Shown: positions 2,309 through 62,889 of the stretch, piece by piece | Layout: each line of letters opens with the position of its first letter | How positions within the stretch are numbered: position 1 is the first letter of the stretch | IMG/VR virus record: IMGVR_UViG_3300022589_000019 | Span: 5,169 to 69,168 of that record | Strand: one strand, 5' to 3' | DNA from: a virus | Taxonomy: Duplodnaviria > Caudoviricetes | DNA: 64,000 nt | Notes under the pieces: model-generated | Seen by the model: the letters and a program-made list of their open reading frames with translations, nothing else | Database searches by the model: none | What the model was told of the DNA's origin: nothing | Program-made: the position numbers and the translations under genes

Positions 2309-2863
2309 TTAATTTTTATCTAACACAGTAAGCGAATCGATATGTGTATGCTCCCAGTCATATATATGGGTACTAACAGCCGGAACTAAAATGCGGTTCG
2401 GGTCTTCCATAATTTCAAAACATCGTTTGTGATAGAAGTAGCAATCGCTGCTCTCATCCATAACAAGAAGTAAACCTTCCTTGTCGTACCCAAGGACTTT
2501 ATATGTTTTTCCGTATTTCAGCTCAAGTATGTCGTTGTCATAATCATGAACAATACACTTAACAACAGCCTCATACTTGTTCAGCACTCCGTCTTCATCA
2601 GATACAACTTCAAAGTCATCAAACGGATTAAAATCATCTATTTTTCCGTCTTCGCCTTTGACATGAAGGCTATCACGTTCTCCTTGCCAGTATTCCAAGA
2701 AATAAGCATTGTATAGGTTTCCATTTATGAACTGATATTTTGGCACTTGCTTACAGCGTTCTTTTCTCGTACAGTCCCTGCAATACTTGTAGTCCGAGCG
2801 GGCGCAGGAAAATCGGTAATATTCAGAATCGCCTACAAATCGCACAATTGCCGATTTTTTCAT
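2309..2863 (-). CDS. Hypothetical protein (CxxCxxxxxC motif, SH3-like beta segments)
   Basis: Start reassigned to ATG 2863 after GAGGAGG; no family recognised. Confidence 0.65.
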   Translation of the reverse strand: MKKSAIVRFVGDSEYYRFSCARSDYKYCRDCTRKERCKQVPKYQFINGNLYNAYFLEYWQGERDSLHVKGEDGKIDDFNPFDDFEVVSDEDGVLNKYEAVVKCIVHDYDNDILELKYGKTYKVLGYDKEGLLLVMDESSDCYFYHKRCFEIMEDPNRILVPAVSTHIYDWEHTHIDSLTVLDKN

Positions 2864-2882
2864 TCCTGCACCTCCTCGACTA

Positions 2883-3128
2883 TTAATAGCTGATTTTTGA
2901 CTCATTCTCGTTAAGATACCCTTTTTCTTCAAGTTTCAATTCAAGCCAATAAACTGGAAGAGGAATTATCTCTTCAATAGGTTTGTTGTTATCCCATATA
3001 TCACATTGACGTGTTTTGCGGTTATACGAAAAAGAGCAAATTATATCGTCATCCCTGGATATGAATTCTCCTATAATTGTTTCTTCATCATATACAATTT
3101 TCTTAAAATAAAAGTTTATATAATGCAT
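2883..3128 (-). CDS. Hypothetical protein, 81 aa
   Basis: ORF fills the gap in a co-directional operon. Confidence 0.6.
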   Translation of the reverse strand: MHYINFYFKKIVYDEETIIGEFISRDDDIICSFSYNRKTRQCDIWDNNKPIEEIIPLPVYWLELKLEEKGYLNENESKISY

Positions 3129-3141
3129 ATCGTCCTATTTT

Positions 3142-4647
3142 TCACGCCTTATGACCGCCAATCTGGGAATTGCGGTCTTTGGCTGTTGCCCCTTCCTCAA
3201 GGTTCATACCTTTAAGGATTGCATTCTTTCCGAATTTCTTTTTTATATCAAGCATTGCCCGTTGCATTTTCTTTTCACGAGCAAGTGCCTCTTCCTCTTC
3301 TTTACGTTTAGGTTCCAGCTCTTCGTAGTCCGTGAACAATGTTAATTGTTCAGCCTGTTCTGTATTTTTGACTTCAGCCCCCGGTATCAGCTTACACGCA
3401 GCAAGCGTGATACGGCGGACAAGTAAATTCTTATCCACAATGCGGTCAAAAAGCTCCATAACGGCATCAACTATAAGACGAGTAGATGAGGTCTGTCTTT
3501 CAAGATTAGCCGTTCCGTGGGCGTGTTTTGGCACTTTACGACCGTAATGGTCAGTGGTAACTGGACCATTGTATTTTGCACTGATTTTTGGGTCTGTGAG
3601 GTTCTCTATATCATAACCTATGGTCAGCACCATTTGATTGGTCACAAGTTCCTTCTCGACAAGATCCAACACAAGCAGTTCCGTCATTTCACGGGTTACG
3701 AGTTTGGCTTTATCAAACGCATAGGGGCATTGGAGAATCTGCCCTGAACTTAGGCTATTGGTGCTTGGTTTGTATGCCTTAACCTCTGCGATGGTACAAG
3801 GTTCCCAACCCCAAGCGTGGTCGATGAGGAGTTCTGCGTTTACACCGAAGAGCTTATATAGCAAATCCTCATTATGCACAGAGCAACGTGCAACATCGCC
3901 CATCGTGTACATTCCGTTAGCCTCAAGTTTAGTCGCGTATCCTTTTCCAACCCGCCAGAAGTCCGTCAGCGGCTTGTGAGACCACAATTTCTCTCGATAT
4001 GACATTTCATCAAGTTCTGCGATACGAACACCATCTTTATCTGCGGGGATGTGCTTTGCGGTGATATCCATTGCAACCTTTGCAAGATACATATTTGTTC
4101 CGATTCCCGCTGTTGCGGTAATGCCGGTCGTTGTTAGGACATCCTTGATAAGCATCATAGCGAAGTCGTGTGCGGTGCCTTTGTAGCTGGAGAGGTAGTG
4201 GGTAATATCGATGAACACCTCATCAATGGAATATACATGAATATCCTCTGGAGCGATATATTTGAGATACACCTTGTAGATTTCGGTGCTGCGTTCCATA
4301 TACAACGCCATCTGCGGTGGTGCAACGATATAATCAAGTTCAAGGGAGGGGTTGCTCTGCAAATCTGGATTATGCGAAGATTGCCCCGTGAACTTTCGCC
4401 CCGGAGCTTTCCTCAAACGTTCTGCGTTTACTTCTTTTACTCGTTGTACGACTTCAAATAGCCTTGCTCTGCCGGAAACACCATACGATTTCAGTGATGG
4501 CGTAACCGCAAGGCATATTGTTTTTTCTGTTCGGCTCAAATCCGCAACCACAAGGTTTGTAGTCATTGGATCGAGACCGCGCTCCATGCATTCGACCGAA
4601 GCGTAAAATGACTTGAGGTCGATGCAAAGGTATGTGCGTTCAGCCAT
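3142..4647 (-). CDS. Y-family error-prone DNA polymerase (ImpB/MucB/SamB, UmuC/UvrX-like)
   Basis: YLCIDLKSFYASVE, YSIDEVFID, TATAGIGTNMYLAKVAMD, DFWRVGKG motifs; C-terminal KKFGKNAILKG. Confidence 0.95.
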   Translation of the reverse strand: MAERTYLCIDLKSFYASVECMERGLDPMTTNLVVADLSRTEKTICLAVTPSLKSYGVSGRARLFEVVQRVKEVNAERLRKAPGRKFTGQSSHNPDLQSNPSLELDYIVAPPQMALYMERSTEIYKVYLKYIAPEDIHVYSIDEVFIDITHYLSSYKGTAHDFAMMLIKDVLTTTGITATAGIGTNMYLAKVAMDITAKHIPADKDGVRIAELDEMSYREKLWSHKPLTDFWRVGKGYATKLEANGMYTMGDVARCSVHNEDLLYKLFGVNAELLIDHAWGWEPCTIAEVKAYKPSTNSLSSGQILQCPYAFDKAKLVTREMTELLVLDLVEKELVTNQMVLTIGYDIENLTDPKISAKYNGPVTTDHYGRKVPKHAHGTANLERQTSSTRLIVDAVMELFDRIVDKNLLVRRITLAACKLIPGAEVKNTEQAEQLTLFTDYEELEPKRKEEEEALAREKKMQRAMLDIKKKFGKNAILKGMNLEEGATAKDRNSQIGGHKA

Positions 4648-22192: not shown

Positions 22193-22451
22193 AGTAGACC
22201 TCCTTGAAAATAGTAACCATAGAAACCAAAGAAACCTTATCTCCAATTGACAGAAACCCTATCTACTATAGGCTGTAAATAGGATAAGGTATTCGACAGC
22301 ATTCGCAACGCTAATGCAGTATACTACATTATATCACAAATTTTGAATTAAGTCTATACCCACATCAGAATTTCTCGTAAAAGCGTAAAAATTTATGCGA
22401 ACGCAGAAATTTTATCCGCATAGCCTCTGCACTCTGTATCAACTGATCACT

Positions 22452-22608
22452 GGTAGCTCAACGGCGTGTAGCGGAAAACTGAATAATACAGCTGCCTTTT
22501 GAGCGGGTTTGCTGCAATCCGAAGCGGAGTTTTCCGTTAGGACTGCGGTTCTTTCTTCACGCCTTTGCAGCACCTAAAGCCTCCGTTTCGAGAAATCGAG
22601 AACGGAGG
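22452..22608 (+). ncRNA. Putative structured 5' leader of the sigma-like gene, ending in an RBS-sequestering hairpin
   Basis: cctccgtttcga-gaaa-tcgagaacggagg (22580-22608) contains the GGAGG RBS; further helices tgctgcaa/ttgcagca and ggcgtg/cacgcc. Confidence 0.5.
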
Positions 22609-27986: not shown

Positions 27987-28423
27987 TGTATAGAAACAGC
28001 GAAGGATATGCCGACCCTACTGCAGGTGCAGCAATCGGCAAAGTAATGAAGGAATATCGTCTTGAGCGCCGTGAAATTTGGCGGCGCCAGACGGAACTCA
28101 AAGAGCGTCCCAAGGTATATATCGTATCTCGTTATGCCGGGGATGTTGAGAACAATGTCAAGGCGGCTATCCGTTATTGCCGTTTTGCTATTGATAAACA
28201 GAAGATGCCCATCGCAGCACATTTGCTCTATCCGCAGATTGTTGATGATAACGACCCCGTTGAAAGAGAAATCGGTACAATGTACGGTTTAGCATTGCTT
28301 GCTTTGTGCGATGAGATTTGGTGCTTTGGCAAAACCCTCTCTGTCGGTATGGAACAGGAAATCAAAGAAGCCAAGCGCCTCGGTAAACCCATAAAGTACT
28401 TTGATGAGGAGGCGGTCAAATGA
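27986..28423 (+). CDS. DUF4406-like (nucleoside deoxyribosyltransferase-like fold) protein
   Basis: KVYIVSRYAG...PIAAHL...CDEIW...SVGMEQEI. Confidence 0.75.
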   Translation: MYRNSEGYADPTAGAAIGKVMKEYRLERREIWRRQTELKERPKVYIVSRYAGDVENNVKAAIRYCRFAIDKQKMPIAAHLLYPQIVDDNDPVEREIGTMYGLALLALCDEIWCFGKTLSVGMEQEIKEAKRLGKPIKYFDEEAVK

Positions 28424-30900
28424 ATATCTCTGCCCAGGATGTATTGCTTGCTTTGTTCAACCCCGAAGATACGGTCTGCTTCCGTGTGTTCGATGATAAG
28501 AAGAAAGGTGTATTCTCCGGTGCGAAACTCGAAATGGAAGCGGGCAAATATTCCGCTATCGAAGGCACCCTGAAATCACATAACGAGAAGAATCGTGGCA
28601 TTTTTTTCGTTGTCAACTATGGTGGCCAGGAGGACAGTAGCATCAGCCGTATCAACGCACAGTTCGTTGAGATGGATGACCTCTCCTTCGAGGAACAGCA
28701 GAAAGCAATCGATGAGTTCCCGTTGCCTCCCTCTATGGTTATTAAGACCCGCAAATCTCTGCACGTTTACTGGCTGATGCGTAACGCAAAAGTCGAGCAG
28801 TTCCGCTTTGTGCAGAAACAGCTTGTATCGCATTTTCACGGCGACCCTATGTGCGTTAACGAGAGCCGTGTTATGCGTTTGCCCGGTTTCAATCACTGTA
28901 AGAAAGATCCCATTATGGTGGAATGTCTCTCTTATCACCCTGAACGCAAGTATACCCAGGAACAGCTTCTTGAAGTTTTGCCTCACGCAGAAGAACAACC
29001 GGTCGAGACAAGGGTTGGCACTGAAAGAGGTCTTGAACTTTTGCTTCACGGATGTGATTTCATTAAGCATTGCAGTGAAAAAGCAGCAACCCTCTCCGAA
29101 CACGACTGGTATGCGATGATTACGAACCTTGCACCCTTTGAAGGTGGTGTCAAGCTGATTCACGAGCTTTCAGCTCCGTATCCCGGATACAGCGAATCAA
29201 ACACGCAGCGTAAAATCAATCACTATCTCGATAGTGGCACGAAGCCTATGACCTGCAAGACCATCGCAGAAAAAGGATTCAAGTGTCCCAAGATGGAAAG
29301 CGGTGAATGCACGTGTAAAGCGCCCGCCGCTATGAGCTATCTTCCACTCAATGTAGACGGACTCCGTGAGATTGTAGCTTCGCTTGAGGTTACCGGTGAT
29401 GCGATGAAGGATATGCAGACCGCAAAAAGCTTCATTGAAACCTATCTGTATAACCAGGATGTTGTAACCGCTGAAACGGTCATCAACTTCGAGCTGAAGG
29501 AGCACTTCAAGTTCAAAAACACCTTCCTTCGTCCGCTTTCGCAGATCTACAAGGAGCATAGCCGCGAATACCAGGCAACAAAGTCTCGTGCCAACTCTAT
29601 GATGATGGAGCTTCCACCGTGGTACACCGTGAATACGCAGGGGTTAAAGTTTCTCCCCGGTGTGCTTGGTGAGCATATGGCATCTACTGAAAATGTCTTT
29701 TATGCAGCCGAGCAGTTCTTCCTTTATCAAGGCGGTGTATTCCGTGAAATCTCCGAAATGGAGGCACAGCGTCTTGTGCAGGATAAGATGATTGCTCGTG
29801 AAATGAAGATGAATCAGATTGTGGATGCAACGCAGCAGTGGAAACTTCGTGTACAGAAGGATATCCGTGAGTTAAATCCCAACCCTTATATCATCAATGT
29901 CAAAAACGGTCTTTACAATGTCCTTGAAGATACGCTGATCGAGCATACCCCGGAATACTACTCTACGGTTCAGCTCAATGTCACCTATGACAAGAAGGCA
30001 GATTGCCCTCGTTTCAAGAAGTTTCTCAAGGAATCTATGGGCGGTGATATGGAGCAAGTGGCTCTCATTCAGGAAATGCTCGGTTATTTCCTTATCCCCG
30101 TAAACTCTGCACAGAAATGCTTTGTTATTGTAGGCGTTGCCGGAGCGGGCAAATCCGTATTGCTCCGTGTACTTAACGACATTCTCCTCGGTAAGCAGAA
30201 TGTGTCCAACGTATCCTGGCAGGCTTTGAATGAACGCTTCAAGACCGCAGAACTCTTCGGCAAACTGGCGAATATCTTTGCTGACCTTCCTACGAAGTAC
30301 ATTGATGACAACGGCATCTTCAAAGCACTGGTCGGTGAAGACTATCTGACCGTTGAGAAGAAGAATAAGAACCCCTTCTCGTTCCAGTCTTGTGCAAGAC
30401 TTCTGTTCTCCTGCAACAGCATCCCCAAAAACTACGGTGACCGTTCTGAAGGCTTTTATCGTAGGCTCATTATTATGCGTTTTAATCACTCTGTACCCGC
30501 TGAAAAGCGCGACCCTGAACTTATCGACAAATTCCGCATGGAAGCAGACGGCATTTTCCTCTTTGCCCTCGAAGGACTCAAACGCCTTATGAAGAAGCAG
30601 TTTATGTTCTCCGAAACCGAGGTCAATAAGGCTGAACTTCAGCAGTATCGTGAGGATAGCGATTCTATGCTTTCGTTTGTAAAGGAATGCTGTACCGTCA
30701 GCTCTGATGTCTATGTTGGTAGTGCCGAAATCTTTAATGCGTACAAAGGATACTGTGAAGAATGTGGTCTTAAGCCGTATTCACAGAGGATGTTTGTTCA
30801 GCAGATCACTGCAACCTTTCCTGAAGTCACTCGGGGCAAGGATAATCTTGGTAACAGACGCATTCTCAAGGGAGTGTGTCTCCGCGATGACTTGAACTAA
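28420..30900 (+). CDS. Primase-helicase (RepB-like primase, D5_N and P4-family SF3 helicase)
   Basis: TRKSLHVYW, RVMRLPG, INVKNG, GVAGAGKS, KLLFSCN-like RLLFSCN, RRLIIMRF. Confidence 0.92.
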   Translation: MNISAQDVLLALFNPEDTVCFRVFDDKKKGVFSGAKLEMEAGKYSAIEGTLKSHNEKNRGIFFVVNYGGQEDSSISRINAQFVEMDDLSFEEQQKAIDEFPLPPSMVIKTRKSLHVYWLMRNAKVEQFRFVQKQLVSHFHGDPMCVNESRVMRLPGFNHCKKDPIMVECLSYHPERKYTQEQLLEVLPHAEEQPVETRVGTERGLELLLHGCDFIKHCSEKAATLSEHDWYAMITNLAPFEGGVKLIHELSAPYPGYSESNTQRKINHYLDSGTKPMTCKTIAEKGFKCPKMESGECTCKAPAAMSYLPLNVDGLREIVASLEVTGDAMKDMQTAKSFIETYLYNQDVVTAETVINFELKEHFKFKNTFLRPLSQIYKEHSREYQATKSRANSMMMELPPWYTVNTQGLKFLPGVLGEHMASTENVFYAAEQFFLYQGGVFREISEMEAQRLVQDKMIAREMKMNQIVDATQQWKLRVQKDIRELNPNPYIINVKNGLYNVLEDTLIEHTPEYYSTVQLNVTYDKKADCPRFKKFLKESMGGDMEQVALIQEMLGYFLIPVNSAQKCFVIVGVAGAGKSVLLRVLNDILLGKQNVSNVSWQALNERFKTAELFGKLANIFADLPTKYIDDNGIFKALVGEDYLTVEKKNKNPFSFQSCARLLFSCNSIPKNYGDRSEGFYRRLIIMRFNHSVPAEKRDPELIDKFRMEADGIFLFALEGLKRLMKKQFMFSETEVNKAELQQYREDSDSMLSFVKECCTVSSDVYVGSAEIFNAYKGYCEECGLKPYSQRMFVQQITATFPEVTRGKDNLGNRRILKGVCLRDDLN

Positions 30901-32587: not shown

Positions 32588-32695
32588 CCCGGTGGGGGTA
32601 TCAAAATCTCTACGACTAAACAATCGTGCAACGGGCGTGGGGTATCGTGTTAAAAAACCGGAAATCAAACGGGGTATTAACCCCAGGAGGTGATT
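32588..32695. other. Candidate cos region
   Basis: Intergenic between HNH and terS, with cccggtggggg-tatcaaaatctct and G-rich blocks as seen in HK97-like cos phages; exact cut site unknown. Confidence 0.45.
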
Positions 32696-32697
32696 TT

Positions 32698-33237
32698 ATG
32701 GCTAAAGACGGAACTGCACGAGGCGGTTCCAGGGTTGGATCGGGTCGAAAACCCAAGGCACTTGCAGACAAAATTGCCGACGGAAGACTTGATGGTGCGA
32801 TGGTTTTACCTACACCTACAGAAATAGAAGGTGTAGAAGTTCCACCGATTAAGGAGTATTTGAAGGCAAAACAGAAAAGCGGCAAAGACCTTTGTGCCGA
32901 AGAGGTCTACCGAGACACCTATGCGTGGCTTAAAGCTCGTGGCTGCGAACGGTTAGTAAACAACCAGCTTATCGAGCAATACGCAATGAGTGTCAGCCGT
33001 TGGATTCAGTGTGAGGAATGCATCTCCGAGTACGGCTTCCTTGCAAAGCATCCGACCACAGGAAATGCCATCGCATCACCCTATGTTGCGATGAGCCAGA
33101 CCTATATGAAACAGGTCAACCAGGTTTGGTATCAAATCTACCAAATCGTAAAAGAAAACTGTGCTGTGGAGTATGGCGGCAACTCTCCGCAGGACGATCT
33201 CATGGAGCGGTTGCTCTCCGCTCGGAAAGGAAACTAA
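32698..33237 (+). CDS. terS: Terminase small subunit (P27 family)
   Basis: RGGSRVGSGRKPK, LIEQYAMSVSRW, ASPYVAM. Confidence 0.9.
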   Translation: MAKDGTARGGSRVGSGRKPKALADKIADGRLDGAMVLPTPTEIEGVEVPPIKEYLKAKQKSGKDLCAEEVYRDTYAWLKARGCERLVNNQLIEQYAMSVSRWIQCEECISEYGFLAKHPTTGNAIASPYVAMSQTYMKQVNQVWYQIYQIVKENCAVEYGGNSPQDDLMERLLSARKGN

Positions 33238-33238
33238 T

Positions 33239-34021
33239 ATGTTTGAAAAAGTAAACCCTGCCCACCCCGACAAGGTGGCAGACAGAATTGCCGGGGCCAT
33301 TGTTGACCTGGCATATGCTGTCGAAGAAAACCCGAAGGTAGCTGTCGAGGTTCTTATCGGCCACGGCACATGCCACGCAATCATTGAAACAACTGCTGCC
33401 ATCGATAAAGTGGATGTAGCAAAAGCTATCCACCGCATCGGTGGCAATCTTATGTGTAACATCGTTGTTGTTCCCCAGGATACGCACCTTGCCCGTAATC
33501 AGGAAGATGCCATTCGCTGTGGTGATAACGGCATCTTCAAGGGTGTGCCTATGACAAAGGAACAGATGACCCTCTCCGGCATTGCAAGAGATATCTATGC
33601 TGTGCATCCTTATGATGGTAAGTACATTATTAACGGAGACAACCTTGTTATCTGTCAGAGCAACGTTGATACAAACGAACTCAAACAGCTCTATCCCAAG
33701 GCACAGATTAACCCGCTCGGAGATTGGACCGGCGGAACAGACGTTGATACTGGTGCTACAAACAGAAAGCTCGGCAGTGATATGGCCGATTCTGTTACAG
33801 GTGGTGGACTTCACGGCAAAGACCTCTCCAAAGCAGATGTCAGCGTAAACATTTACGCTTGGCTTGAGGCACAGAGAACCGGCAAGACTGTCGAACTCTG
33901 CTGTGCTATTGGTGATGAGACCGTTGGGGGCATTCCTTATGAGAAGATTGTCGAAACGGCTCGAAAGTTTATCACCTCCGTAGGCGGCTTTGAGAAATTT
34001 GCGGAATGGGGGCTGGTTTAA
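33239..34021 (+). CDS. metK: Compact phage S-adenosylmethionine synthetase
   Basis: EKVNPAHPDKVADRI, GDNGIF, DTGATNRK, GGGLHGKDLSKADVS; about 260 aa, shorter than cellular MetK. Confidence 0.88.
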   Translation: MFEKVNPAHPDKVADRIAGAIVDLAYAVEENPKVAVEVLIGHGTCHAIIETTAAIDKVDVAKAIHRIGGNLMCNIVVVPQDTHLARNQEDAIRCGDNGIFKGVPMTKEQMTLSGIARDIYAVHPYDGKYIINGDNLVICQSNVDTNELKQLYPKAQINPLGDWTGGTDVDTGATNRKLGSDMADSVTGGGLHGKDLSKADVSVNIYAWLEAQRTGKTVELCCAIGDETVGGIPYEKIVETARKFITSVGGFEKFAEWGLV

Positions 34022-35256
34022 TGCTTATTGAAAACAAGAAACTGACCGACCTTATTCCTGCTGACTATAATCCCCGTAAGGACTTAAAACCCGGTGACGA
34101 CGAATATGAAAAGCTGAAACGCTCCATTGAGCAGTTCGGTATGGTTCAGCCGGTCATTTGGAATAAAACTACGGGACGTGTGGTTGGCGGTCATCAGCGT
34201 TTGAAGGTTCTCATTGATATGGGACACACCGAAACCGAGTGTGTTATAGTCGAAATGGATGAAGCACAGGAAAAGGCTCTCAACATCGCTCTTAACAAAA
34301 TCAGCGGTGATTGGGATAAGGATAAATTGGCACTGCTTATTTCCGACTTGCAGGGCGAAGACTTTGACGTAACCCTTACGGGTTTTGACCCTCGTGAAAT
34401 CGATGACATCTTCAAGGCAACACTCCAGGAAGGTGTCAAAGAAGATGACTTTGACGTTGAGGCAGAACTGCAAAAGCCTACCTTCTCCAAGGCGGGCGAT
34501 CTTTGGATGCTCGGCAGACACCGCCTGGTTTGCGGTGACAGCACCAAGGCTGACACATTTGAGCTTCTGATGAACGGTGTCAAGGCAAACCTTGTCATCA
34601 CCGACCCACCCTACAACGTCAACTATGAAGGTTCGGCAGGCAAAATTAAAAACGATAATATGGCAAAAGAAGCGTTTTATCAGCTCTTGCTTGATTCCTT
34701 CACTAACACCGAAAGAGCAATGGCTGATGACGCTTCTATTTATATTTTCCATGCGGACACCGAGGGTTTAAATTTCCGCAGAGCCTTTGAGGATGCCGGC
34801 TTCTATCTTTCCGGCACGTGCATTTGGAAAAAGCAATCCCTGGTGCTTGGCCGTTCTCCTTATCAGTGGCAGCACGAACCCGTCCTCTTCGGTTGGAAGA
34901 AGAAAGGCAAACATCAGTGGTACACCGGCCGTAAGGAATCCACCATTTGGGAGTTCGACAAACCCAAGAAGAACGGTGACCATCCTACGATGAAACCTAT
35001 CCCTCTGTTGGCGTACCCCATTATGAATTCCTCAATGAGCAACACGGTTGTGCTTGACCCCTTTGGCGGTTCCGGTAGCACCTTGATTGCTTGTGAACAG
35101 ACAGAACGCATTTGCCACACCATCGAGCTGGATGAGAAGTTCTGCGATGTAATCGTAAAGCGTTACATTGAGCAGGTCGGCTCTTCCAAGGATGTAAAGG
35201 TTCAGCGTGATGGTTTAACTTACAGCTTTGACGAAGTTGGAGGTACAAATGAATAA
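34021..35256 (+). CDS. ParB-N-terminal domain fused to beta-class N4/N6 DNA methyltransferase
   Basis: YNPRK...VVGGHQR; TDPPY; HPTMKP; VLDPFGGSGST. Confidence 0.93.
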   Translation: MLIENKKLTDLIPADYNPRKDLKPGDDEYEKLKRSIEQFGMVQPVIWNKTTGRVVGGHQRLKVLIDMGHTETECVIVEMDEAQEKALNIALNKISGDWDKDKLALLISDLQGEDFDVTLTGFDPREIDDIFKATLQEGVKEDDFDVEAELQKPTFSKAGDLWMLGRHRLVCGDSTKADTFELLMNGVKANLVITDPPYNVNYEGSAGKIKNDNMAKEAFYQLLLDSFTNTERAMADDASIYIFHADTEGLNFRRAFEDAGFYLSGTCIWKKQSLVLGRSPYQWQHEPVLFGWKKKGKHQWYTGRKESTIWEFDKPKKNGDHPTMKPIPLLAYPIMNSSMSNTVVLDPFGGSGSTLIACEQTERICHTIELDEKFCDVIVKRYIEQVGSSKDVKVQRDGLTYSFDEVGGTNE

Positions 35257-37552
35257 CTTAACGCTCGGCAGCTTGTTTGATGGCTCGGGCGGTTTTCCTT
35301 TAGGCGGCTTGCTTTCCGGTATCACCCCTGTGTGGGCATCGGAAATCGAGCCGTTTCCTATTAGGGTTACCACCAAGCGGCTGCCTTTTATGAAACACTA
35401 TGGTGATATCTCCACTATGGATGGCGGGAAAATTGAACCCGTGGATATTATCACCTTCGGCTCTCCTTGCACCGATATGTCAGTGGCAGGTAAACGAGCC
35501 GGACTGGAAGGACGACAATCTGTGCTGTTCTACCAAGCCATCCGCATCATTAAAGAAATGAGGAGTGCCACCAATGGTAAATACCCAAGATACATCGTGT
35601 GGGAGAATGTCCCCGGCGCCTTCTCCTCAAACGGCGGAGAAGATTTCAAAGCCGTCCTCGAAGCGGTCATCGACATCGCAGAGCCGGACACCGAGGTGCC
35701 TATGCCTGAAAAAGGCAGATGGCCTTATGCAGACAGCTACATGGGAGACAGATGGAGCGTTGCTTACCGAACTCTCGATGCTCAATACTGGGGAGTCCCC
35801 CAACGCAGACGCCGCATCTACCTTGTCGCAGATTTTGCAGGCAAAGGTGCCCCCGACATATTATTTAAGTCCGAGGGCGTGTCAGGGTATTCTGCGGAGA
35901 GCTTCCGTGCGTGGCAAAGAGCTGCCGGAAGTGCTCCGTGTTGCATTGGAGCGTCAGGCTTCGATGGATACAACGGAGACTTAACGGGAGAGGTTTCTTC
36001 CACTCTCGGTGTAAACTGTGGTATGTCCACTGGTCGCAACGGCATCGTGCTAAACGACCAGGGCGGCAATCGAATGGATATCACCGATGAGGTAACCGCA
36101 ACCCTTCGAGCCGAAGCACACCACCCTCCGTGCGTGTTGGAATCAGCCGGGTTCTGTACCGAGCATTCAGCTAAAAGCCGTAGCATTGGTTACGAAGAGG
36201 AAACTTCTCCGACGCTCCGTGCCGGTGTTGTCCCGGCAGCAGTTGCCTTGGAAAACCATCCTGCCGACAGCAGAGTAACCATTGCGGATGATGATAAGGT
36301 ACAAACCCTAACCTCCCGTATGGGTACAGGTGGTGGCAATGTACCTCTCGTTATGAAAATCCGCTCCGGCTGTGAAGGCGGTGGAAAAGGCGCTTTGATT
36401 CAGGAAAACAAGTCCGCAACACTTTCTTGCAATAACGACCAAACCTTGTTTGAACCGTGTAGTTGGGATGGCGGACAGACCGTTTCTACCTTGACCGCAC
36501 ACAACGCAGGCGGAAGCCAACGAATGCCAGACAAGAACCACTTCAACTGTGTTCTGCAGGCTTATGGAATCTGTTCCAAAGATAGCAACGCTATGAAATC
36601 TGCCAATCCTCACAGTGGTATTTATGAGGCTGATACCTCTCGTACTCTTGATGGCAACGGTGGAAACCCCGGTTGCAACCAGGGTGGCATTGCTGTGGTA
36701 TGTGTCGACCAAGGCGGAGGTAAAAGTTCTTGCAGTGTCAGTGAGGATGTTTCTCCCACGCTTGCTTGTACCCACGGCGGTGAACCTGCGGTTTGTGTTA
36801 AGGGCGGAACAATTGTAATCGAAGGCAACGGCACCCGCCCCTCTCACCAAGGAGATGGTTATAAGGAGTCCGATGTGATGTACACCCTTAACACCGTTGA
36901 CCGCCACGCTGTCTATGCAATGACAACGGGCAGTTTCACACAGGTGTCTCAAGATACCTCCCCAACGCTTATGGCGAGAGACTTTAAAGACCCAAATGCT
37001 GTATGTTACGGCATCGGCAGAGATGCATTTAACCAGGGCAAAAACGCACAGTTCACTCCTTCGGTCTCTGAAGAGACACAACCGACACTGGTTGCCAAAG
37101 GCCCCGGTGCTGTTGCGACTCCTTATGGTTTTGACCCTTCTGCAAGTCGTGATGTTGGGCAGTACTTCCTTGAAGATTGTGGCAACACACTTGTCAACGG
37201 ATCTTGCCCCGGACACCATAACGGTGTTGTCGAGCCGACCTATACGGTTCGTAGATTAACTCCTACCGAATGTGCAAGACTTCAGGGCTTCCCCGATTGG
37301 TGGTGTGATAACCTCGGCATCGAAGAACCCACTATGGATGACATCCGTTACTGGTACGATGTGTTTGAGACCCACCGCAGAATTGTCGGCGGGTCCACAA
37401 AACCCAAGACCCTCAAGCAGATAAAGAAGTGGCTCACCGACCCGCATTCCGATGCTGCGGAATATAAGATGTGGGGCAACGGTGTGGCACTGCCTTGCGT
37501 GTTCTTTGTGCTTTCGGGCATTGTTTACTATAACAGCCTCAACGAAGGCTGA
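35249..37552 (+). CDS. C5-cytosine DNA methyltransferase with greatly expanded repetitive variable region
   Basis: SLFDGSGG, FGSPCTD, VWENVPG, QRRRRIY, RRLTPTECARLQGFP, WGNGV; about 12 'TL' repeats. Confidence 0.93.
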   Translation: MNNLTLGSLFDGSGGFPLGGLLSGITPVWASEIEPFPIRVTTKRLPFMKHYGDISTMDGGKIEPVDIITFGSPCTDMSVAGKRAGLEGRQSVLFYQAIRIIKEMRSATNGKYPRYIVWENVPGAFSSNGGEDFKAVLEAVIDIAEPDTEVPMPEKGRWPYADSYMGDRWSVAYRTLDAQYWGVPQRRRRIYLVADFAGKGAPDILFKSEGVSGYSAESFRAWQRAAGSAPCCIGASGFDGYNGDLTGEVSSTLGVNCGMSTGRNGIVLNDQGGNRMDITDEVTATLRAEAHHPPCVLESAGFCTEHSAKSRSIGYEEETSPTLRAGVVPAAVALENHPADSRVTIADDDKVQTLTSRMGTGGGNVPLVMKIRSGCEGGGKGALIQENKSATLSCNNDQTLFEPCSWDGGQTVSTLTAHNAGGSQRMPDKNHFNCVLQAYGICSKDSNAMKSANPHSGIYEADTSRTLDGNGGNPGCNQGGIAVVCVDQGGGKSSCSVSEDVSPTLACTHGGEPAVCVKGGTIVIEGNGTRPSHQGDGYKESDVMYTLNTVDRHAVYAMTTGSFTQVSQDTSPTLMARDFKDPNAVCYGIGRDAFNQGKNAQFTPSVSEETQPTLVAKGPGAVATPYGFDPSASRDVGQYFLEDCGNTLVNGSCPGHHNGVVEPTYTVRRLTPTECARLQGFPDWWCDNLGIEEPTMDDIRYWYDVFETHRRIVGGSTKPKTLKQIKKWLTDPHSDAAEYKMWGNGVALPCVFFVLSGIVYYNSLNEG

Positions 37553-37838
37553 TAATATAGTCTTCCGAATCGGTTATGTACTTTTCGTAATCGATTCGGG
37601 TGACGGCGTTACTGCTGTGGTGGTAACACATTCTTCCTGCCCAACCCAGGAAGCAAATGGTGCCGTCCGGTTGGAGGGACATAATATCATCTACAGGGCG
37701 TTCGGTTGGTTTTGCTCCATCCCCGTAGGTGATACCCTCCAATTCCGCATCGCTCATAAAGCGAAAACGGATAGCGTTGGTTTTAAGAAGGATATAAACC
37801 TTCTTGTCGATTCCAATGAGTTCTTTGATTTTGCGCAT
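37539..37838 (-). CDS. Orphan 99-aa protein under SAM-riboswitch control
   Basis: RBS AAGGAG (37848-37853); immediately downstream of the riboswitch terminator; 14-bp convergent overlap with the C5 MTase. Confidence 0.75.
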   Translation of the reverse strand: MRKIKELIGIDKKVYILLKTNAIRFRFMSDAELEGITYGDGAKPTERPVDDIMSLQPDGTICFLGWAGRMCYHHSSNAVTRIDYEKYITDSEDYIISLR

Positions 37839-37878
37839 AATAAAACGCTCCTTTAAGTTTATTACCTAAAGAGAGCGT

Positions 37879-37911
37879 AAAAAAGCAATCCTATCGTCAC
37901 GACAGGATTGC
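37879..37911 (-). terminator. Riboswitch intrinsic terminator
   Basis: 12-bp stem gcaatcctgtcg-tga-cgataggattgc followed by U6 on the minus strand. Confidence 0.9.
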
Positions 37912-37925
37912 AGAGTATCTCATAT

Positions 37926-38012
37926 AACCCTATCGTTCAAGCTTTGGCACCTTACCTTTCGGCAGGTTGTCGGCGGTCACAGGGCTTGTCCCTCACGCAC
38001 TCTTTATAGGTT
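37926..38012 (-). ncRNA. SAM-I (S-box) riboswitch aptamer, P4-less variant
   Basis: AACCUAU-A-AAGAG-UGCG-UGAGGGACAAGCCC-UGUGA-CCGC-CGACAACC-UGCC-GAAA-GGUA-AGGUGCC-AAAG-CUUG-AAC-GAUAGGGUU; compensatory pseudoknot CAAG/CUUG. Confidence 0.88.
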
Positions 38013-38018
38013 GCATAT

Positions 38019-38047
38019 AGGATAGCACAAAAATCTCGATTTGTCAA
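38019..38047 (-). promoter_or_regulatory. Sigma-A promoter driving the riboswitch
   Basis: TTGACA (38042-38047), 17 bp spacer, TGc-TATCCT (38019-38024); predicted start at the first aptamer bases. Confidence 0.85.
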
Positions 38048-38183
38048 TGAGACGTGTACATTACACAAATAAAACTACAGAATAAGGCTACATATTCTAC
38101 ACCGAATAATGTGCGAATTAACTGGATATATCTCGTACTTGACGGTAATATGTGACTACCAAAAAACAAAGGAGGTCATAGTA

Positions 38184-38975
38184 ATGACAATCAAGTACAA
38201 TGTTCCCGGCAAGGAACGCAAACGAATGGTTCTCACCATTGCAAAGTGGCTCGGTGAAGAGGTCAAATACCTGGGTGCTCCCAGCTTTGCCTACGAGGTG
38301 GATTACTTCACCATCGACAAGGACGGCAACCTTATTTTTGACGACCGCGCTGACAGCGAGGTTATCGAGAGGTTGCTTGAGCACCTTTACGATGAAGGCT
38401 TTGAGAGTGACATGAGTGCCGATGAGCCAAAGGGCATCGCAATCCAAATCCCAATGGCTGACTTTACCGTAGCATCCCTTCAAAACCTTTTTGACCTGGT
38501 CGAATCCAAAGGCAATCTTATAAAGAAAGCCTTGGGAGTAGACGATCTTCCTATTAATCTCATCGGTGAGCGTTTAGATTTCCCTTGGTTCAAGGCGGAC
38601 AGCACTCCCGATGAAATCAAAACCTATATGGAGTTTGTTACAGCGTTATGCAATATGGCAAAGAATCAAAGGCGGATAAACGCAAAAGAGAAAGAAGTCG
38701 AAAACGAGAAATACGCATTCCGATGCTTTCTCCTTCGTCTCGGCTTTATCGGCAACGAATACAAATTGCAAAGAAAAATCCTCCTGCGAAACCTCGAAGG
38801 TTCTTCCGCTTTCAAGGGTAGCACACCAAAGACCTACAAGGTAGAACTCGATAACGATAACTTTAAGATTTTCACAGCAGAGAACGACCGCAAGGCACAT
38901 GAGATGGCACTTGCCATTGCAAAAGACCACGGCAGCGAATTCTGCGAAGTTTCAGAATACAAGGAGGAAGCATAA
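38184..38975 (+). CDS. Phage 'virulence-related'-type hypothetical protein
   Basis: YLGAPSFAYEVDYFTIDKDG, NEKYAFRCFLLRLGFIG...RKILLRNLEGSSAFK; start reassigned to 38184. Confidence 0.75.
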   Translation: MTIKYNVPGKERKRMVLTIAKWLGEEVKYLGAPSFAYEVDYFTIDKDGNLIFDDRADSEVIERLLEHLYDEGFESDMSADEPKGIAIQIPMADFTVASLQNLFDLVESKGNLIKKALGVDDLPINLIGERLDFPWFKADSTPDEIKTYMEFVTALCNMAKNQRRINAKEKEVENEKYAFRCFLLRLGFIGNEYKLQRKILLRNLEGSSAFKGSTPKTYKVELDNDNFKIFTAENDRKAHEMALAIAKDHGSEFCEVSEYKEEA

Positions 38976-39720: not shown

Positions 39721-41322
39721 ATCAGAAAGTTAAAAAATTACAAGCCTACGAGGTTTATGGCAAAGGATTCTTACTACGATAAGGCTTCCGCTGACTATGC
39801 GGTCAACTTTATCGAGTGCCTTTGTCACACGAAGGGTATATGGGCAAGAAAACCTTTTGAACTTATAGACTGGCAAGAACAGATCATCCGTGATGTGTTC
39901 GGCATTCTAAAACCAAACGGATATAGACAGTTTAATTCTGTGTATGTAGAAATACCCAAAAAGCAAGGCAAGTCAGAACTTGCGGCAGCGGTCGCATTAT
40001 TCCTAACTTGCGGTGATGGAGAGGAACGTGCCGAGGTATACGGCTGTGCTTCTGACAGACAGCAAGCATCCATTGTTTTTAATGTTGCTGCTGATATGGT
40101 TCGCATGTGTCCGGCACTCGCCAAACGAGTAAAAATCCTCGACTCACAGAAACGATTGATTTACCTTCCTACGAACAGTGTGTATCAAGTGCTTTCTGCG
40201 GATGTCAATAACAAGCACGGTTTTAACACTCACGGGGTTGTCTTTGATGAACTGCATACACAGCCAAACCGCAATTTACACGATGTAATGAATATCGGCT
40301 CAGGTGACTCAAGAATGCAGCCGGTGTTCTGGGATATAACAACCGCTGGAACAAATACAAATTCTATCTGCTACGAAATTCATCAAAAGGCGGTTGATAT
40401 TATCGAAGGAAGAAAAATAGACCCTACTTTTTATCCTGTGATTTACGGTGCTGATGAAGATGATGATTGGACAGACCCAAAGGTGTGGGCAAAGGCAAAT
40501 CCTTCTCTTGGGGTTACAGTGGATATCGAAAAGGTTCGTGCAGCCTGCGAATCAGCAAAGCAAAACCCCGGTGAAGAAAACTCCTTCCGTCAGCTTCGTT
40601 TAAATCAATGGGTTAAACAAACGGTGCGTTGGATGCCAATGGATAAATGGGATAAATGTGCGTTTGTTGTTAACGAGGACGAATTGGAAGGCCGTGTCTG
40701 TTACGGTGGTCTTGACCTTTCATCCACAACGGATATCACGGCATTGGTATTGGTATTTCCACCTACCGATGAGGACGACAAATATGTTGTCCTACCGTAC
40801 TTTTGGATACCCGAGGATAACATTGACCTTCGTGTAAAGCGAGACCACGTCCCATATGACGTTTGGGAGCGGCAAGGCTTTATGCAAACCACCGAGGGTA
40901 ATGTTGTCCACTACGGCTATATCGAGAAGTTTATTGAACGGCTCGGTGAGCGTTTCAATATTCGTGAGATTGCATTCGACCGTTGGGGTGCTGTCCAGAT
41001 GGTACAGAACCTTGAAGGTATGGGTTTCACGGTCGTTCCTTTCGGACAGGGTTTCAAAGATATGTCCCCGCCTACGAAGGAGTTAATGAAACTGGTGCTC
41101 GAAGAGAAGATTGCCCACGGTGGACACCCCGTCCTTCGTTGGATGATGGACAACATCTTCATTCGCACCGACCCTGCCGGTAACATCAAACCGGATAAGG
41201 AAAAATCCACAGAGAAAATTGACGGTGCGGTTGCCACCATTATGGCTCTCGACCGTGCGATTCGCTGTGGCAACGATACTACTGCTTCGGTATATAACGA
41301 CCGAGGCATTTTGTTTATCTGA
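39721..41322 (+). CDS. terL: Terminase large subunit (probable ATC start; first ATG at 39757)
   Basis: EIPKKQGKS, VVFDELH, ITTAG, IAFDRW, KIDGAVA; AAGGAGGTG RBS lies 7 nt before the in-frame ATC. Confidence 0.93.
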   Translation: MRKLKNYKPTRFMAKDSYYDKASADYAVNFIECLCHTKGIWARKPFELIDWQEQIIRDVFGILKPNGYRQFNSVYVEIPKKQGKSELAAAVALFLTCGDGEERAEVYGCASDRQQASIVFNVAADMVRMCPALAKRVKILDSQKRLIYLPTNSVYQVLSADVNNKHGFNTHGVVFDELHTQPNRNLHDVMNIGSGDSRMQPVFWDITTAGTNTNSICYEIHQKAVDIIEGRKIDPTFYPVIYGADEDDDWTDPKVWAKANPSLGVTVDIEKVRAACESAKQNPGEENSFRQLRLNQWVKQTVRWMPMDKWDKCAFVVNEDELEGRVCYGGLDLSSTTDITALVLVFPPTDEDDKYVVLPYFWIPEDNIDLRVKRDHVPYDVWERQGFMQTTEGNVVHYGYIEKFIERLGERFNIREIAFDRWGAVQMVQNLEGMGFTVVPFGQGFKDMSPPTKELMKLVLEEKIAHGGHPVLRWMMDNIFIRTDPAGNIKPDKEKSTEKIDGAVATIMALDRAIRCGNDTTASVYNDRGILFI

Positions 41323-59975: not shown

Positions 59976-59992
59976 TAAAGGAGGTGTTCCGT

Positions 59993-61306
59993 ATGAAAAA
60001 GACAATACGGGTTATTGAACCCACCATACCGCTTCTCAAAAAGAAAAAGCGTGTTGCTGCGTATGCTCGTGTTTCTTCCGGCAAGGACGCAATGTTAATG
60101 TCCTTGTCTGCACAGGTCAGTTACTATAGCGAACTGATTCAAAGAAACTCCGAATGGGAATACGCAGGGGTCTATGCCGATGAAGCAACGACCGGCACAA
60201 AAGAAGACCGTACTAATTTTCAGAAACTACTTAAGGCTTGCCGCAACGGTGAAATCGATATTATTCTTACGAAGTCAATTTCAAGATTTGCGAGAAATAC
60301 TGTTACATTGCTCGAGGCAGTTCGTGAACTAAAAAAGTACGGTGTGGATGTTTATTTTGAGCGTGAGAATATACACTCTTTAAGCGGGGATGGTGAGTTA
60401 ATGCTGACCATCCTCGCTTCTTTTGCCCAGGAAGAAAGCCTATCCGCAAGCGAGAATCAGAAGTGGCGCATCAAAAAGAACTTTGAGGAAGGTAAACCCT
60501 GGACCTATGGAATGTTGGGTTACCGCTACAACGGTGAGTATTATGAGTTAATCCCGGAAGAGGCAGAGGTGGTGCGTAAGATTTTCGCATACTACCTTGA
60601 GGGACTTGGATACAACGCAATCTGCAAACGACTGAACGCTGAAGGTATAGTGACCCGAAACAATAATAAATGGTCGCAGAACAGCGTTTCCAAAATTCTC
60701 AAGAACTACACCTACACGGGAAATCTGCTGTTGCAGAAAACATTTCGTGAAAACCACATCACTAAAAAGACCCGTGTGAATCGTGGCGAGCTGCCGAAGT
60801 ACCACGCAGAAGACACCCACGAGGCTATCGTTGACATTGATACCTTTATGGCGGTGCAGAACGAGATGGCACGAAGACTAAAGGGGTTTGAACATAAATC
60901 CCAGGTTCAAAAGACATATCCATTCACACACAAAATGGTCTGCGATTGCTGCGGAGCTTATTACCGCAGAAAAATCACAAAGACAAGAGTGGTTTGGATC
61001 TGCGCTACATTCAATCAAAAAGGCAAAGCCTTGTGCCAACAATCCAAGCAACTGCCGGAAGAAACGCTTATCGCACTTTGCAACGATGTTCTCGGTCTTG
61101 TGGAGTTCAACGAGCAGATTTTTATAAACAAGGTTTCCAAAATCCGCATACTTGATAACAACCGAGTGCAGTTCCTTCTTTCCAACGGCAAAACAGAGGA
61201 ACGAACCTGGAAAGACCGCTCAAGGTCGGATAGTTGGACGGACGAAATGAAGGAAACCGCACGGCAACGAACACTGCAACGCTACGCACCAAAGGAGGTG
61301 GAATAA
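59993..61306 (+). CDS. Large serine recombinase 1
   Basis: VAAYARVSS, YADEATTG, KSISRFARN, recombinase domain, Zn ribbon. Confidence 0.95.
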   Translation: MKKTIRVIEPTIPLLKKKKRVAAYARVSSGKDAMLMSLSAQVSYYSELIQRNSEWEYAGVYADEATTGTKEDRTNFQKLLKACRNGEIDIILTKSISRFARNTVTLLEAVRELKKYGVDVYFERENIHSLSGDGELMLTILASFAQEESLSASENQKWRIKKNFEEGKPWTYGMLGYRYNGEYYELIPEEAEVVRKIFAYYLEGLGYNAICKRLNAEGIVTRNNNKWSQNSVSKILKNYTYTGNLLLQKTFRENHITKKTRVNRGELPKYHAEDTHEAIVDIDTFMAVQNEMARRLKGFEHKSQVQKTYPFTHKMVCDCCGAYYRRKITKTRVVWICATFNQKGKALCQQSKQLPEETLIALCNDVLGLVEFNEQIFINKVSKIRILDNNRVQFLLSNGKTEERTWKDRSRSDSWTDEMKETARQRTLQRYAPKEVE

Positions 61307-62889
61307 TGGCAAGAGAAGTAAGAGTAATCCCTGCCAGTGTACACAAATTTACGACCGTTCCTTTCGGCTCTACGGTAAGGAAAAAGGTCGCAGGCTACGC
61401 TCGTGTGTCAACCGACCTTGAAGAACAGCTCACAAGCTACGAGGCGCAGGTGGATTACTACACCAAGTACATTCAGAATAATCCTGATTGGGACTTTGTT
61501 GAGGTGTACACAGATGAGGGCATTTCAGCCACCTCCACCAAACGCAGAGACGGCTTCAACCGAATGATTCAAGATGCCTTGGATGGCAAAATCGATTTGA
61601 TTATAACCAAGTCGGTCAGTCGTTTTGCCCGAAACACAGTTGATACCTTGACCACTGTTCGTCAGCTCAAGGAAAAAGGCATCGAGGTATACTTTGAAAA
61701 AGAGAATATTCACACCTTGGATAGCAAGGGCGAATTGCTTATAACCATTATGTCAAGCCTTGCCCAGGAAGAGAGCCGTTCCATTTCCGAGAACGTAACT
61801 TGGGGACAGCGTAAACGCTTCGCTGACGGTAAGGTCAGTATGCCGTATAAACAGTTCCTTGGCTATGACAAAGGCCCCGGCAAACACGGTACACCAGTGA
61901 TAAATGAGAAACAAGCCGAGATTGTGCGCCTTATCTACAGGCTTTTCCTTGAAGGCAAAACACCGAGCGGAATCGCACGATACCTTACCGAACAGCAGAT
62001 ACCGACTCCCGGTGGTAAAACCAAATGGCAATCCGGCACGGTATTCAGCATTCTCACGAACGAGAAATACAAGGGCGATGCCATCTTGCAAAAGTGCTTC
62101 ACAGTGGATTTCCTAACCAAAAAGCAAAAGGTCAACGAGGGCGAAGTTCCGCAATATTATGTTGAGAACAGCCATCCGGCAATTATTGCTCCCGAGGTGT
62201 TTGATATGGTTCAAGCCGAGGTGGAACGCAGACGCACGTTGCCTACAAGGCACAGCGGTGTTGGGTTGTTTGCAAGCCGAATTTTCTGTGGAGATTGTGG
62301 TGCAGCCTTTGGTGCAAAGGTGTGGCATTCCAACGACAAATACCGCAAGGTTATCTACCAATGCAATCATAAGTTCAAGGGCAAAGAAAAATGCTCCACT
62401 CCCAAGTTGGAAGAAGAGCAGATAAAGGAGCTGTTCGTAAAAGCGGTGAACCTTCTGATTGCCGATGCAAAAGAGATAGTCCGAAACTACGAAGAAGTAC
62501 GCCCCTTAATATTTGGCACTGCTTGCTTCGATGCGGAGATTACCGAACTTCAGGAAGAAATGACCGTAACAGCAGAGCTTATTCAAAAGTGTGTGGATGA
62601 GAATGCACACACTGCCATCAACCAAGACAAGTATAAAAAGAAGTATGACGCTTTGGTTAGAAGGTTCGAGAAAGCAAAGCAACGCCTCCAAGAAATTCAC
62701 GACACCAAGCGAGACCGAGAAGCACGGCGCTTACAAACCGACCACTTTATGCGTGAACTCAAAAAGCAAGAAAGCATTATTACAGAGTTCGATGAGGTCT
62801 TGTGGTACACCTTGGTTGACCGCATCACGGTTTACAACGAAACCGACATCCGTTTCACCTTCAAGGATGGAACAGAATACAAAGTATAA
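61306..62889 (+). CDS. Large serine recombinase 2
   Basis: VAGYARVST, YTDEGISA, KSVSRFARN, NEKYKGD, Zn ribbon, coiled coil. Confidence 0.95.
   Translation: MAREVRVIPASVHKFTTVPFGSTVRKKVAGYARVSTDLEEQLTSYEAQVDYYTKYIQNNPDWDFVEVYTDEGISATSTKRRDGFNRMIQDALDGKIDLIITKSVSRFARNTVDTLTTVRQLKEKGIEVYFEKENIHTLDSKGELLITIMSSLAQEESRSISENVTWGQRKRFADGKVSMPYKQFLGYDKGPGKHGTPVINEKQAEIVRLIYRLFLEGKTPSGIARYLTEQQIPTPGGKTKWQSGTVFSILTNEKYKGDAILQKCFTVDFLTKKQKVNEGEVPQYYVENSHPAIIAPEVFDMVQAEVERRRTLPTRHSGVGLFASRIFCGDCGAAFGAKVWHSNDKYRKVIYQCNHKFKGKEKCSTPKLEEEQIKELFVKAVNLLIADAKEIVRNYEEVRPLIFGTACFDAEITELQEEMTVTAELIQKCVDENAHTAINQDKYKKKYDALVRRFEKAKQRLQEIHDTKRDREARRLQTDHFMRELKKQESIITEFDEVLWYTLVDRITVYNETDIRFTFKDGTEYKV

Follow-up and report, generated by a model that had tools for sequence, protein, structure and literature searches.

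Whether a bacteriophage reads the S-adenosylmethionine (SAM) of its host directly, through an RNA of its own, is the question raised by a minus-strand leader at positions 37879-38047 of the DNA analysed here. The window, meaning the whole stretch of 64,000 nt, covers positions 5,169 to 69,168 of IMG/VR virus record IMGVR_UViG_3300022589_000019 (Caudoviricetes), and the leader stands before an open reading frame (ORF) for a 99-amino-acid protein. A preliminary description of the sequence had proposed a complete SAM-I riboswitch without helix P4. We present here a covariance-model, comparative and folding analysis of the leader and its relatives. The locus as a whole is very probably best explained as a self-contained minus-strand unit of a temperate gut phage of the Ca. 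Heliusvirales type, in which a P4-less SAM-I leader acts as a SAM-off switch, with a possible second tier of control.

The aptamer and its pseudoknot

The Rfam family RF00162 (SAM) matched the window with cmscan at 38012-37927 (minus strand) with 53.1 bits (gathering score, 44.4; E = 2.1e-9). The alignment spans model positions 1-108, with positions 81-97, which form P4, deleted. RF00162 also scored above its gathering score in 10 of 10 relatives tested (47.1-59.9 bits) and was retained over SAM-IV and SAM-I/IV by clan competition in every locus tested. The Rfam comparison that the preliminary description had proposed thus bears out its central claim. Judged by these matches and by the conservation described below, the element is a genuine member of the SAM-I (S-box) family, and SAM binding with SAM-dependent termination would be expected of it.

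Relatives were found with an aptamer DNA pattern, a search with the 99-amino-acid protein, and a P4-less covariance model (R1), which matched 70 loci (61 distinct sequences) at 81-110 bits. In the 61 distinct homologues, 94.4% of cells in the aptamer helices are paired (P1, 83.6%; P2a and P2b, 100% each; P3, 94.9%), as against 25-40% with the partners slid. Eleven aptamer pairs are changed on both sides and 0 of 500 shuffles equalled the observed values, a statistic that overstates independence because the homologues are related. J1/2 AGAG, the GA/UGA kink-turn (K-turn) nucleotides, P3 CAACC/GGUG and the P1 UAU/AUA next to the junction show little or no variation; the junction and pocket positions (J1/2 AGAG, P3 CAACC/GGUG, the junction-side P1 A-U pairs and J3/4 AA) are changed in at most 5 of the 61. 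The K-turn consensus, GA ... UGA between P2a and P2b, is present and almost invariant, as read from the sequence and not from a three-dimensional structure. The cmscan alignment carries only three non-canonical marks: an A.G at the top of P1, an A.C in P3 and a missing A opposite a U in P2a. The first two are the departures from consensus that had already been pointed out. The native leader gains stability from its order of bases, as none of 200 shuffled versions matched it (z = -3.4).

Two observations concern P3. At the pair in columns 53/102 of alignment A4 (window 37963/37954), G.U occurs in 36 sequences, G-C in 8 and a non-standard combination in 16 (A.C in the rows read); G.U and protonated A.C are isosteric, and the alternation looks like a conserved wobble geometry. 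One relative (locus L057, positions 2806-2925, plus strand) has an insertion of about 31 nt in the P3 loop while still lacking P4, so P3 length is free to vary.

All that is left of P4, in the window as in each of the 61 distinct homologues, is a lone closing pair, G-C in 55 and G.U in 6. Every copy has CAAG in loop L2 and GCUUG in J3/4, and the resulting L2-J3/4 pseudoknot (PK-1), CAAG/CUUG, is invariant and complementary in 61/61. Canonical metK riboswitches of the hosts use pseudoknot pairs of the ACAGG/CCUG type. Because the host copies carry a different complementary pair, the pseudoknot change is compensatory relative to the mainstream family, as the preliminary description held. In Actinomycetota, SAM-I aptamers are reported whose P4 is naturally very short or absent (PMC12714719), and SAM aptamers reportedly work without P4 at lower affinity (PMC12714719, citing Trausch 2014 and Heppell 2011). 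Loss of P4 therefore has precedent in SAM-I and does not exclude membership, since P4 is variable in the family and natural P4-less members have been reported. With this precedent, and with Rfam detecting the element, it is less exotic than had been supposed.

P4 and the pseudoknot are not known to contact the ligand in solved SAM-I structures, which counts against reading their changes as the mark of a specificity variant for S-adenosylhomocysteine (SAH) or another SAM-related compound. Such a drift of ligand would fit a clade sharply distinct from host SAM-I that controls no methionine or SAM gene, and ligand-changed variant subclasses are known in other riboswitch families (PMC6847200). All Rfam-conserved junction and P1/P3 positions are unchanged, however, and designed as well as natural P4-less SAM-I aptamers respond to SAM (PMC12714719). 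We regard a change of ligand as highly improbable.

Termination and the masked ribosome-binding site

Upstream of the aptamer, the proposed promoter TTGACA-17-TATCCT was located at 38047-38019 (minus strand) with an extended -10 TG; transcription would start at or just before P1. A strict regular expression (TTGAnn-N16-19-TAnnnT) found the same arrangement at the same distance in 35 of 62 homologous leaders. The 10-bp antiterminator and the 12-bp terminator with its U6 tract were confirmed at the coordinates first assigned to them (Table 1) and show covariation in the homologues. For comparison of whole leaders, 70 (65 distinct) were aligned with a second model, R2. Alignment A5 was built without fitting the antiterminator helix; in it, 92.3% of the antiterminator cells are paired and both partners differ in 6 of 10 pairs. 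For the terminator the values are 95.8% and 6 of 12 pairs (63 homologues). In the window the antiterminator is the minimum-free-energy (MFE) fold of the nascent RNA (positions 1-116), before the 3' arm of the terminator is made, and the terminator is the MFE fold of the RNA extended to the U-tract (positions 1-135). The proposed competition of the antiterminator with both P1 and the terminator is supported by conserved pairing with compensatory changes, and the nascent fold switches once the terminator arm is present. We infer the classical S-box logic, in which P1 competes with the antiterminator of an intrinsic terminator.

A second hairpin sits between the U-tract and the start codon in almost every leader. 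It is formed by an anti-Shine-Dalgarno segment (B) and a segment (C) that holds the Shine-Dalgarno (SD) sequence in the 3' arm. The window has 13 B:C pairs, and the segment after the terminator folds at -16.9 kcal/mol. The SD is masked in the MFE fold of 57 of 62 homologous leaders; pairing in the B:C helices reaches 88.7% and 73.3%, and both partners have changed in 12 of 13 pairs. Segment B is also complementary to segment A, which comprises the P1 5' strand, J1/2 and the P2a 5' strand. The A:B duplex has a mean energy of -16.7 kcal/mol, against -6.1 with B shuffled and -9.4 with the flanks shuffled and the anti-SD core kept. Compared with non-cognate A, the cognate A is the better partner for B in 93% of leaders, and the observed sum was equalled in none of 2000 permutations. 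In a fixed register A:B is 74.6% paired, falling to 38-51% when slid. The complementarity tracks each aptamer's own variants, for example in L057 and L016; in L057, with variant J1/2 and P2a, the locus's own B is complementary over 13 consecutive pairs (two of them G.U). A second, translational tier beyond transcription termination is, on this comparative evidence, about an even bet.

Three relatives depart from this layout. In L115 (201-333, plus strand) and probably in L114 (3860-3986, plus strand) the terminator is missing, and the SD-masking hairpin comes immediately after the P4-less aptamer; keeping B:C, L115 looks like a translation-only version, as L114 probably does. In L114 the usual ATG start of the family reads ACG. 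A family member without the aptamer (L090, 2660-2760, plus strand) keeps a B:C-type hairpin (ACACUCCUUUUGG / CAAAGGAGUGA) at its ribosome-binding site.

The 3' arm of the terminator is nearly a copy of the P1 3' strand, so that the leader can also fold as a four-helix SAM-I in which the antiterminator takes the place of P4 and the terminator arm closes P1 (P1'). This fold is possible in all 63 terminator-bearing leaders, and its junction-closing G-C is present in 63/63. The apparent P4 in the cmscan alignment of L001 was rejected as a true P4; it is the antiterminator helix plus the terminator arm. Were SAM to bind this four-helix form, it would stabilize the antiterminator and promote read-through, making the element an ON switch. 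The pairing of P1', as good as that of P1 (81.9% against 83.7%), the closing G-C and the higher cmscan scores of the four-helix alignment in L001 (59.9 bits), L124 (62.7 bits) and L125 (60.1 bits) fit such a switch. The fold is partly automatic, however, because the terminator arm shares its antiterminator partner with the P1 3' strand and must resemble it, and the polymerase has to transcribe about 40 nt beyond the finished three-helix aptamer before the four-helix form can arise. SAM on the aptamer's 5' part would leave the ribosome-binding site covered by B:C, and the gene would be off in both states; the terminator-less L115 retains the P4-less aptamer; and the A:B covariation requires a read-through transcript with an unfolded aptamer. 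An ON switch is thus very unlikely. The four-helix fold could be relevant after transcription. One such version, a two-stage, shape-shifting sensor in which the three-helix form decides termination and a four-helix refold governs translation through A:B and B:C, the cassette being a portable SAM-depletion alarm for prophages and hosts alike, seems unlikely to us but is worth stating.

The SAM-off mechanism that we prefer would run as follows. With SAM bound, P1 (AACCUAU/AUAGGGU) would be locked, 37935-37926 could not pair with 37909-37900, and the 12-bp terminator would form and stop transcription at U6. With SAM scarce, the 10-bp antiterminator would form first and RNA polymerase would read into the 99-amino-acid gene. 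In the read-through RNA the B:C hairpin would conceal the ribosome-binding site until the unfolded 5' part of the aptamer (P1 5' strand, J1/2 and P2a 5' strand) captured B and freed the SD; a SAM-bound aptamer would leave B on the SD, so that SAM would silence the gene in transcription as well as in translation. The cassette would then be a mobile module by which low SAM turns on a small protein.

Besides the relatedness of the homologues, several points weigh against this mechanism. PK-1 shows no internal covariation, as it does not vary within the set. P1 is short, with 5 solid pairs and a mismatch. P4 shortening is reported to reduce SAM affinity (PMC12714719, citing Heppell 2011). For the second tier, the register of A:B is imperfect in the fixed alignment at the 74.6% given above, and nearest-neighbour energies in the window are -37.1 kcal/mol for B:C against -30.3 kcal/mol for A:B. 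Because these energies favour B:C, A:B would need to form co-transcriptionally, before C is made.

Table 1. Positions of the leader elements and of neighbouring genes in the window
Feature	Position	Strand	Detail
Sigma-70-type promoter	38019-38047	-	TTGACA (38047-38042), 17-nt spacer with TG, TATCCT (38024-38019); consensus scan 10/12
SAM-I-type aptamer without P4	37927-38012	-	RF00162, 53.1 bits; own P4-less model R1, 100 bits
P1 (AACCUAU/AUAGGGU)	38012-38006 with 37933-37927	-	
P2a/K-turn/P2b	38000-37972	-	
P3	37971-37946	-	
PK-1 5' half, L2 loop CAAG	37985-37988	-	pairs with CUUG 37941-37938
PK-1 3' half, J3/4 CUUG	37938-37941	-	pairs with CAAG 37988-37985
P4 remnant, one pair	G37942-C37935	-	after J3/4
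P1 3' strand = antiterminator 5' arm	37926-37935	-	10 pairs with 37909-37900
Intrinsic terminator	37879-37911	-	12-bp stem (37911-37900 with 37896-37885), UGA loop, U6 (37884-37879); terminator scan
Segment A (P1 5' strand, J1/2, P2a 5' strand)	37995-38010	-	complementary to B
Segment B (ACGCUCUCUUUAGG), anti-SD arm	37865-37878	-	pairs with C; also complementary to segment A
Segment C (CUUAAAGGAGCGU)	37845-37857	-	SD GGAG at 37851-37848; pairs with B
Regulated gene, 99-amino-acid protein (P0001)	37539-37838	-	conserved family of about 100 amino acids
D5-type primase-helicase	28420-30900	+	
terS	32626-33237	+	
MetK-N-domain-like ORF	33161-34021	+	PF00438, E = 5.5e-10, about 70 N-terminal residues
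ParB-N6 methyltransferase	34006-35256	+	
C5 methyltransferase	35228-37552	+	774 amino acids
Amidoligase-like ORF	38109-38975	+	
terL	39757-41322	+	
Two adjacent large serine recombinases	59984-62889	+	Resolvase, Recombinase and zinc ribbon

Relatives, controlled genes and surroundings

The aptamer DNA pattern was found in 30 viral contigs and the 99-amino-acid protein at 26 viral and 57 bacterial-genome loci. Among these loci, found by protein alone, the aptamer is present in 25 of the 26 viral and 49 of the 57 bacterial-genome cases, and R1 matches about 170 nt upstream of the protein match even at 35-45% protein identity. Four of the nine loci without the aptamer are cut at a contig end or hold a partial gene; L090, L110 and L113 are distant family members that lack it. 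The search among related prophages that had been suggested thus yielded the same P4-less aptamer in 70 loci of gut phages, prophages and Clostridia chromosomes.

Five cassette-bearing host genomes each contain one canonical SAM-I riboswitch with a short P4 before metK (66-84 bits), alongside their P4-less copies (55-65 bits). Since the hosts hold both forms, the P4-less form is a separate lineage and no copy of the host metK leader. The surrounding genes vary, so the constant unit is the promoter, the riboswitch and the small ORF. In Caproiciproducens the cassette adjoins ImmA/XRE genes. It stands alone in L084 (3827-4300), between pyruvate phosphate dikinase and ACT/PaaK-like genes, and in L112 (3836-4306), between GNAT and HtpG; no phage genes were found among the six flanking ORFs scanned at these two loci. 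Their isolated placements suggest that the cassette is mobile as a unit.

The controlled protein belongs to a family of 237 cluster representatives at E <= 1e-3, distributed over Ruminococcus, Oscillospiraceae, Acutalibacteraceae, Lachnospiraceae and their phages. Its nearly invariant residues include C62, W66, G68, Y72 and H73. It had no match in Pfam, PHROGs, NCBIfam or PADLOC, and its profile had none among PDB sequences. The AlphaFold model (pLDDT, 88) gave no convincing fold match (Foldseek against PDB, E >= 0.4; VIA-align wide, Z <= 3.1), and BFVD returned uncharacterised phage proteins only, at E >= 0.015. In the ESM Atlas there were unnamed clusters and a weak lead (0.84) to RegA-like translational regulators. 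A search for longer or fused forms of the family gave two proteins, both without domains. The same riboswitch also fronts at least three other small ORFs unrelated to the 100-amino-acid family and one ORF of 732 amino acids. No family was found for the ORFs behind the riboswitch in L002, L006/L016, L011, L027 and L032; the L027 ORF has a marginal profile match to the 100-amino-acid family, the sole such case among them.

The source record is a 69,168-base IMG/VR virus contig rated complete by CheckV (100%), and the named phages nearest to it are those of Ruminococcus and Oscillospirales in Ca. Heliusvirales. Members of this group are almost wholly temperate, and C5 methyltransferase and SAM synthetase genes are frequent in them; the paper describing them makes no mention of a riboswitch (PMC11283538). 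A temperate lifestyle is consistent with the pair of large serine recombinases near the end of the record. The statement that the element lies inside a prophage needs qualification: the record itself is a virus contig in which no host chromosome was seen, and what supports the idea is the recombinase pair and the integration of relatives in bacterial genomes.

The riboswitch unit is a minus-strand island within a plus-strand gene block. The preliminary description had placed it beside metK and two methyltransferase genes. The ParB-N6 and C5 methyltransferases stand; the supposed metK is an N-terminal domain match, with 47 bits against a cut-off of 309 for TIGR01034 and about 70 N-terminal residues covered. 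Any tie to the MetK-like and methyltransferase genes would be confined to the Heliusvirales-like lineage: a convergent C5 methyltransferase was found in 28 of 75 cassette loci compared, all in the Heliusvirales-like group, and none was seen in the other 47 within the 3-4 kb examined, some loci being short.

The 3' ends of the 99-amino-acid ORF (37838-37539) and the C5 methyltransferase ORF overlap by 14 nt, and no terminator-like site follows the former on the minus strand. Each of the 21 viral loci with a protein identity of >=58% has the convergent layout, as do 7 genome loci (L061, L064, L066, L073, L074, L079 and L081). In this lineage the main output might therefore be a SAM-gated antisense transcript into the C5 methyltransferase gene and the late operon. 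S-box-controlled antisense RNA has a precedent in the ubiG-mccBA operon of Clostridium acetobutylicum. Elsewhere, however, no methyltransferase occurs within 4 kb of the cassette, whose neighbours are the ImmA/XRE genes, pyruvate phosphate dikinase and ACT/PaaK-like genes, or HtpG. The ORF is also conserved as protein at identities as low as 30-40%, and it has an SD of its own that a dedicated hairpin masks. On these grounds antisense is at most an added, lineage-specific effect, and as the main output it is quite unlikely. Control of the small protein remains the preferred reading.

Other features of the region were noted. The 774-amino-acid C5 methyltransferase is unusually long; its Pfam C5 domain falls in three separate stretches, and matches to phrog_38038 (function unknown) and to several methyltransferase PHROGs lie in its C-terminal part. 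A 303-amino-acid minus-strand frame at 36308-37219 was set aside as most likely a shadow ORF: it lies inside the C5 methyltransferase ORF, which PHROG profiles cover end to end, and it has no family. It would be transcribed if riboswitch read-through went on. A Y-family (ImpB/MucB/SamB) DNA polymerase gene lies at 3142-4647 (minus strand). At 22424-22577 (plus strand) the window matches the DUF2800 RNA motif (RF02960) with 127 bits (gathering score, 60.2), a phage-associated structured RNA whose function is not assigned.

Relation to known systems and significance

With SAM-I riboswitches of RF00162, such as the Bacillus subtilis yitJ/metI and Clostridia metK leaders, the phage element shares the P1-P2-P3 core with the K-turn nucleotides, J1/2 AGAG, CAACC/GGUG at the asymmetric base of P3, the L2-J3/4 pseudoknot and an antiterminator/terminator platform of the kind that is off with SAM bound. 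It differs in a P4 of one G-C or G.U pair, in a CAAG/CUUG pseudoknot in place of (A)CAGG/CCUG, in controlling an orphan 100-amino-acid protein instead of methionine, cysteine or SAM genes, in being borne by phages and prophages, and in the second hairpin on the SD. Natural aptamers of Actinomycetota with a very short P4 or none, and designed P4-less aptamers, have the SAM-I core without P4 in common with it and reportedly can retain switching with SAM (PMC12714719). The natural ones belong to another phylum and context (chromosomal actinobacterial genes), and no phage link or dual platform is described for them; they are set apart here by description, not by sequence.

SAM-IV (RF00634) and SAM-I/IV (RF01725), of clan CL00012, have a SAM-I-like binding core, and SAM-IV has no P4 at the SAM-I position. 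In both classes a 3' hairpin takes part in a second pseudoknot (PK-2), and neither the K-turn nor PK-1 occurs in SAM-I/IV (PMC6890682). The phage element, in contrast, has the K-turn nucleotides and PK-1; with a P3 loop that differs among copies in both length and sequence, it is unlikely to hold a conserved partner for PK-2. The Escherichia coli lysC riboswitch acts at two levels, translation and RNase E cleavage. It resembles the phage element in having one aptamer with two outputs, which here would be a putative tandem of termination and SD masking through long-range pairing to the 5' half of the aptamer. Marine myophage glutamine riboswitches likewise are metabolite sensors carried by viruses, with a different ligand class, other hosts (here gut Clostridia) and other genes, and riboswitches are rare in phages (PMC9004378). 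In the literature searched, SAM-I riboswitches are not described for gut phages or Heliusvirales. What is new is a P4-less SAM-I clade of phages and prophages with a rewritten pseudoknot and orphan targets, and, quite possibly, a tandem transcription-plus-translation platform.

The breadth of the clade, the second tier and a SAM-linked protein family of unassigned role place the finding above the routine. It provides a natural and populous set of minimal three-helix SAM-I aptamers, useful for studying the contribution of P4 because of the possible tandem platform and the built-in four-helix alternative fold. The family of about 100 amino acids and the unrelated small ORFs are marked as SAM-linked, which gives an entry to their function, and cassette-bearing isolates, Caproiciproducens galactitolivorans BS-1 and Ruminococcus sp. 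zg-924, make the system testable. SAM fuels phage DNA methylation and is targeted by both sides in phage-host conflict. A SAM-depletion alarm, if it exists, might be triggered, for example, by methionine starvation or when superinfecting phages bring SAM-degrading enzymes, and the small effector proteins that it switched on would form a family with a new fold. If the phage RNA indeed reads SAM directly, temperate gut phages would monitor this metabolite themselves.

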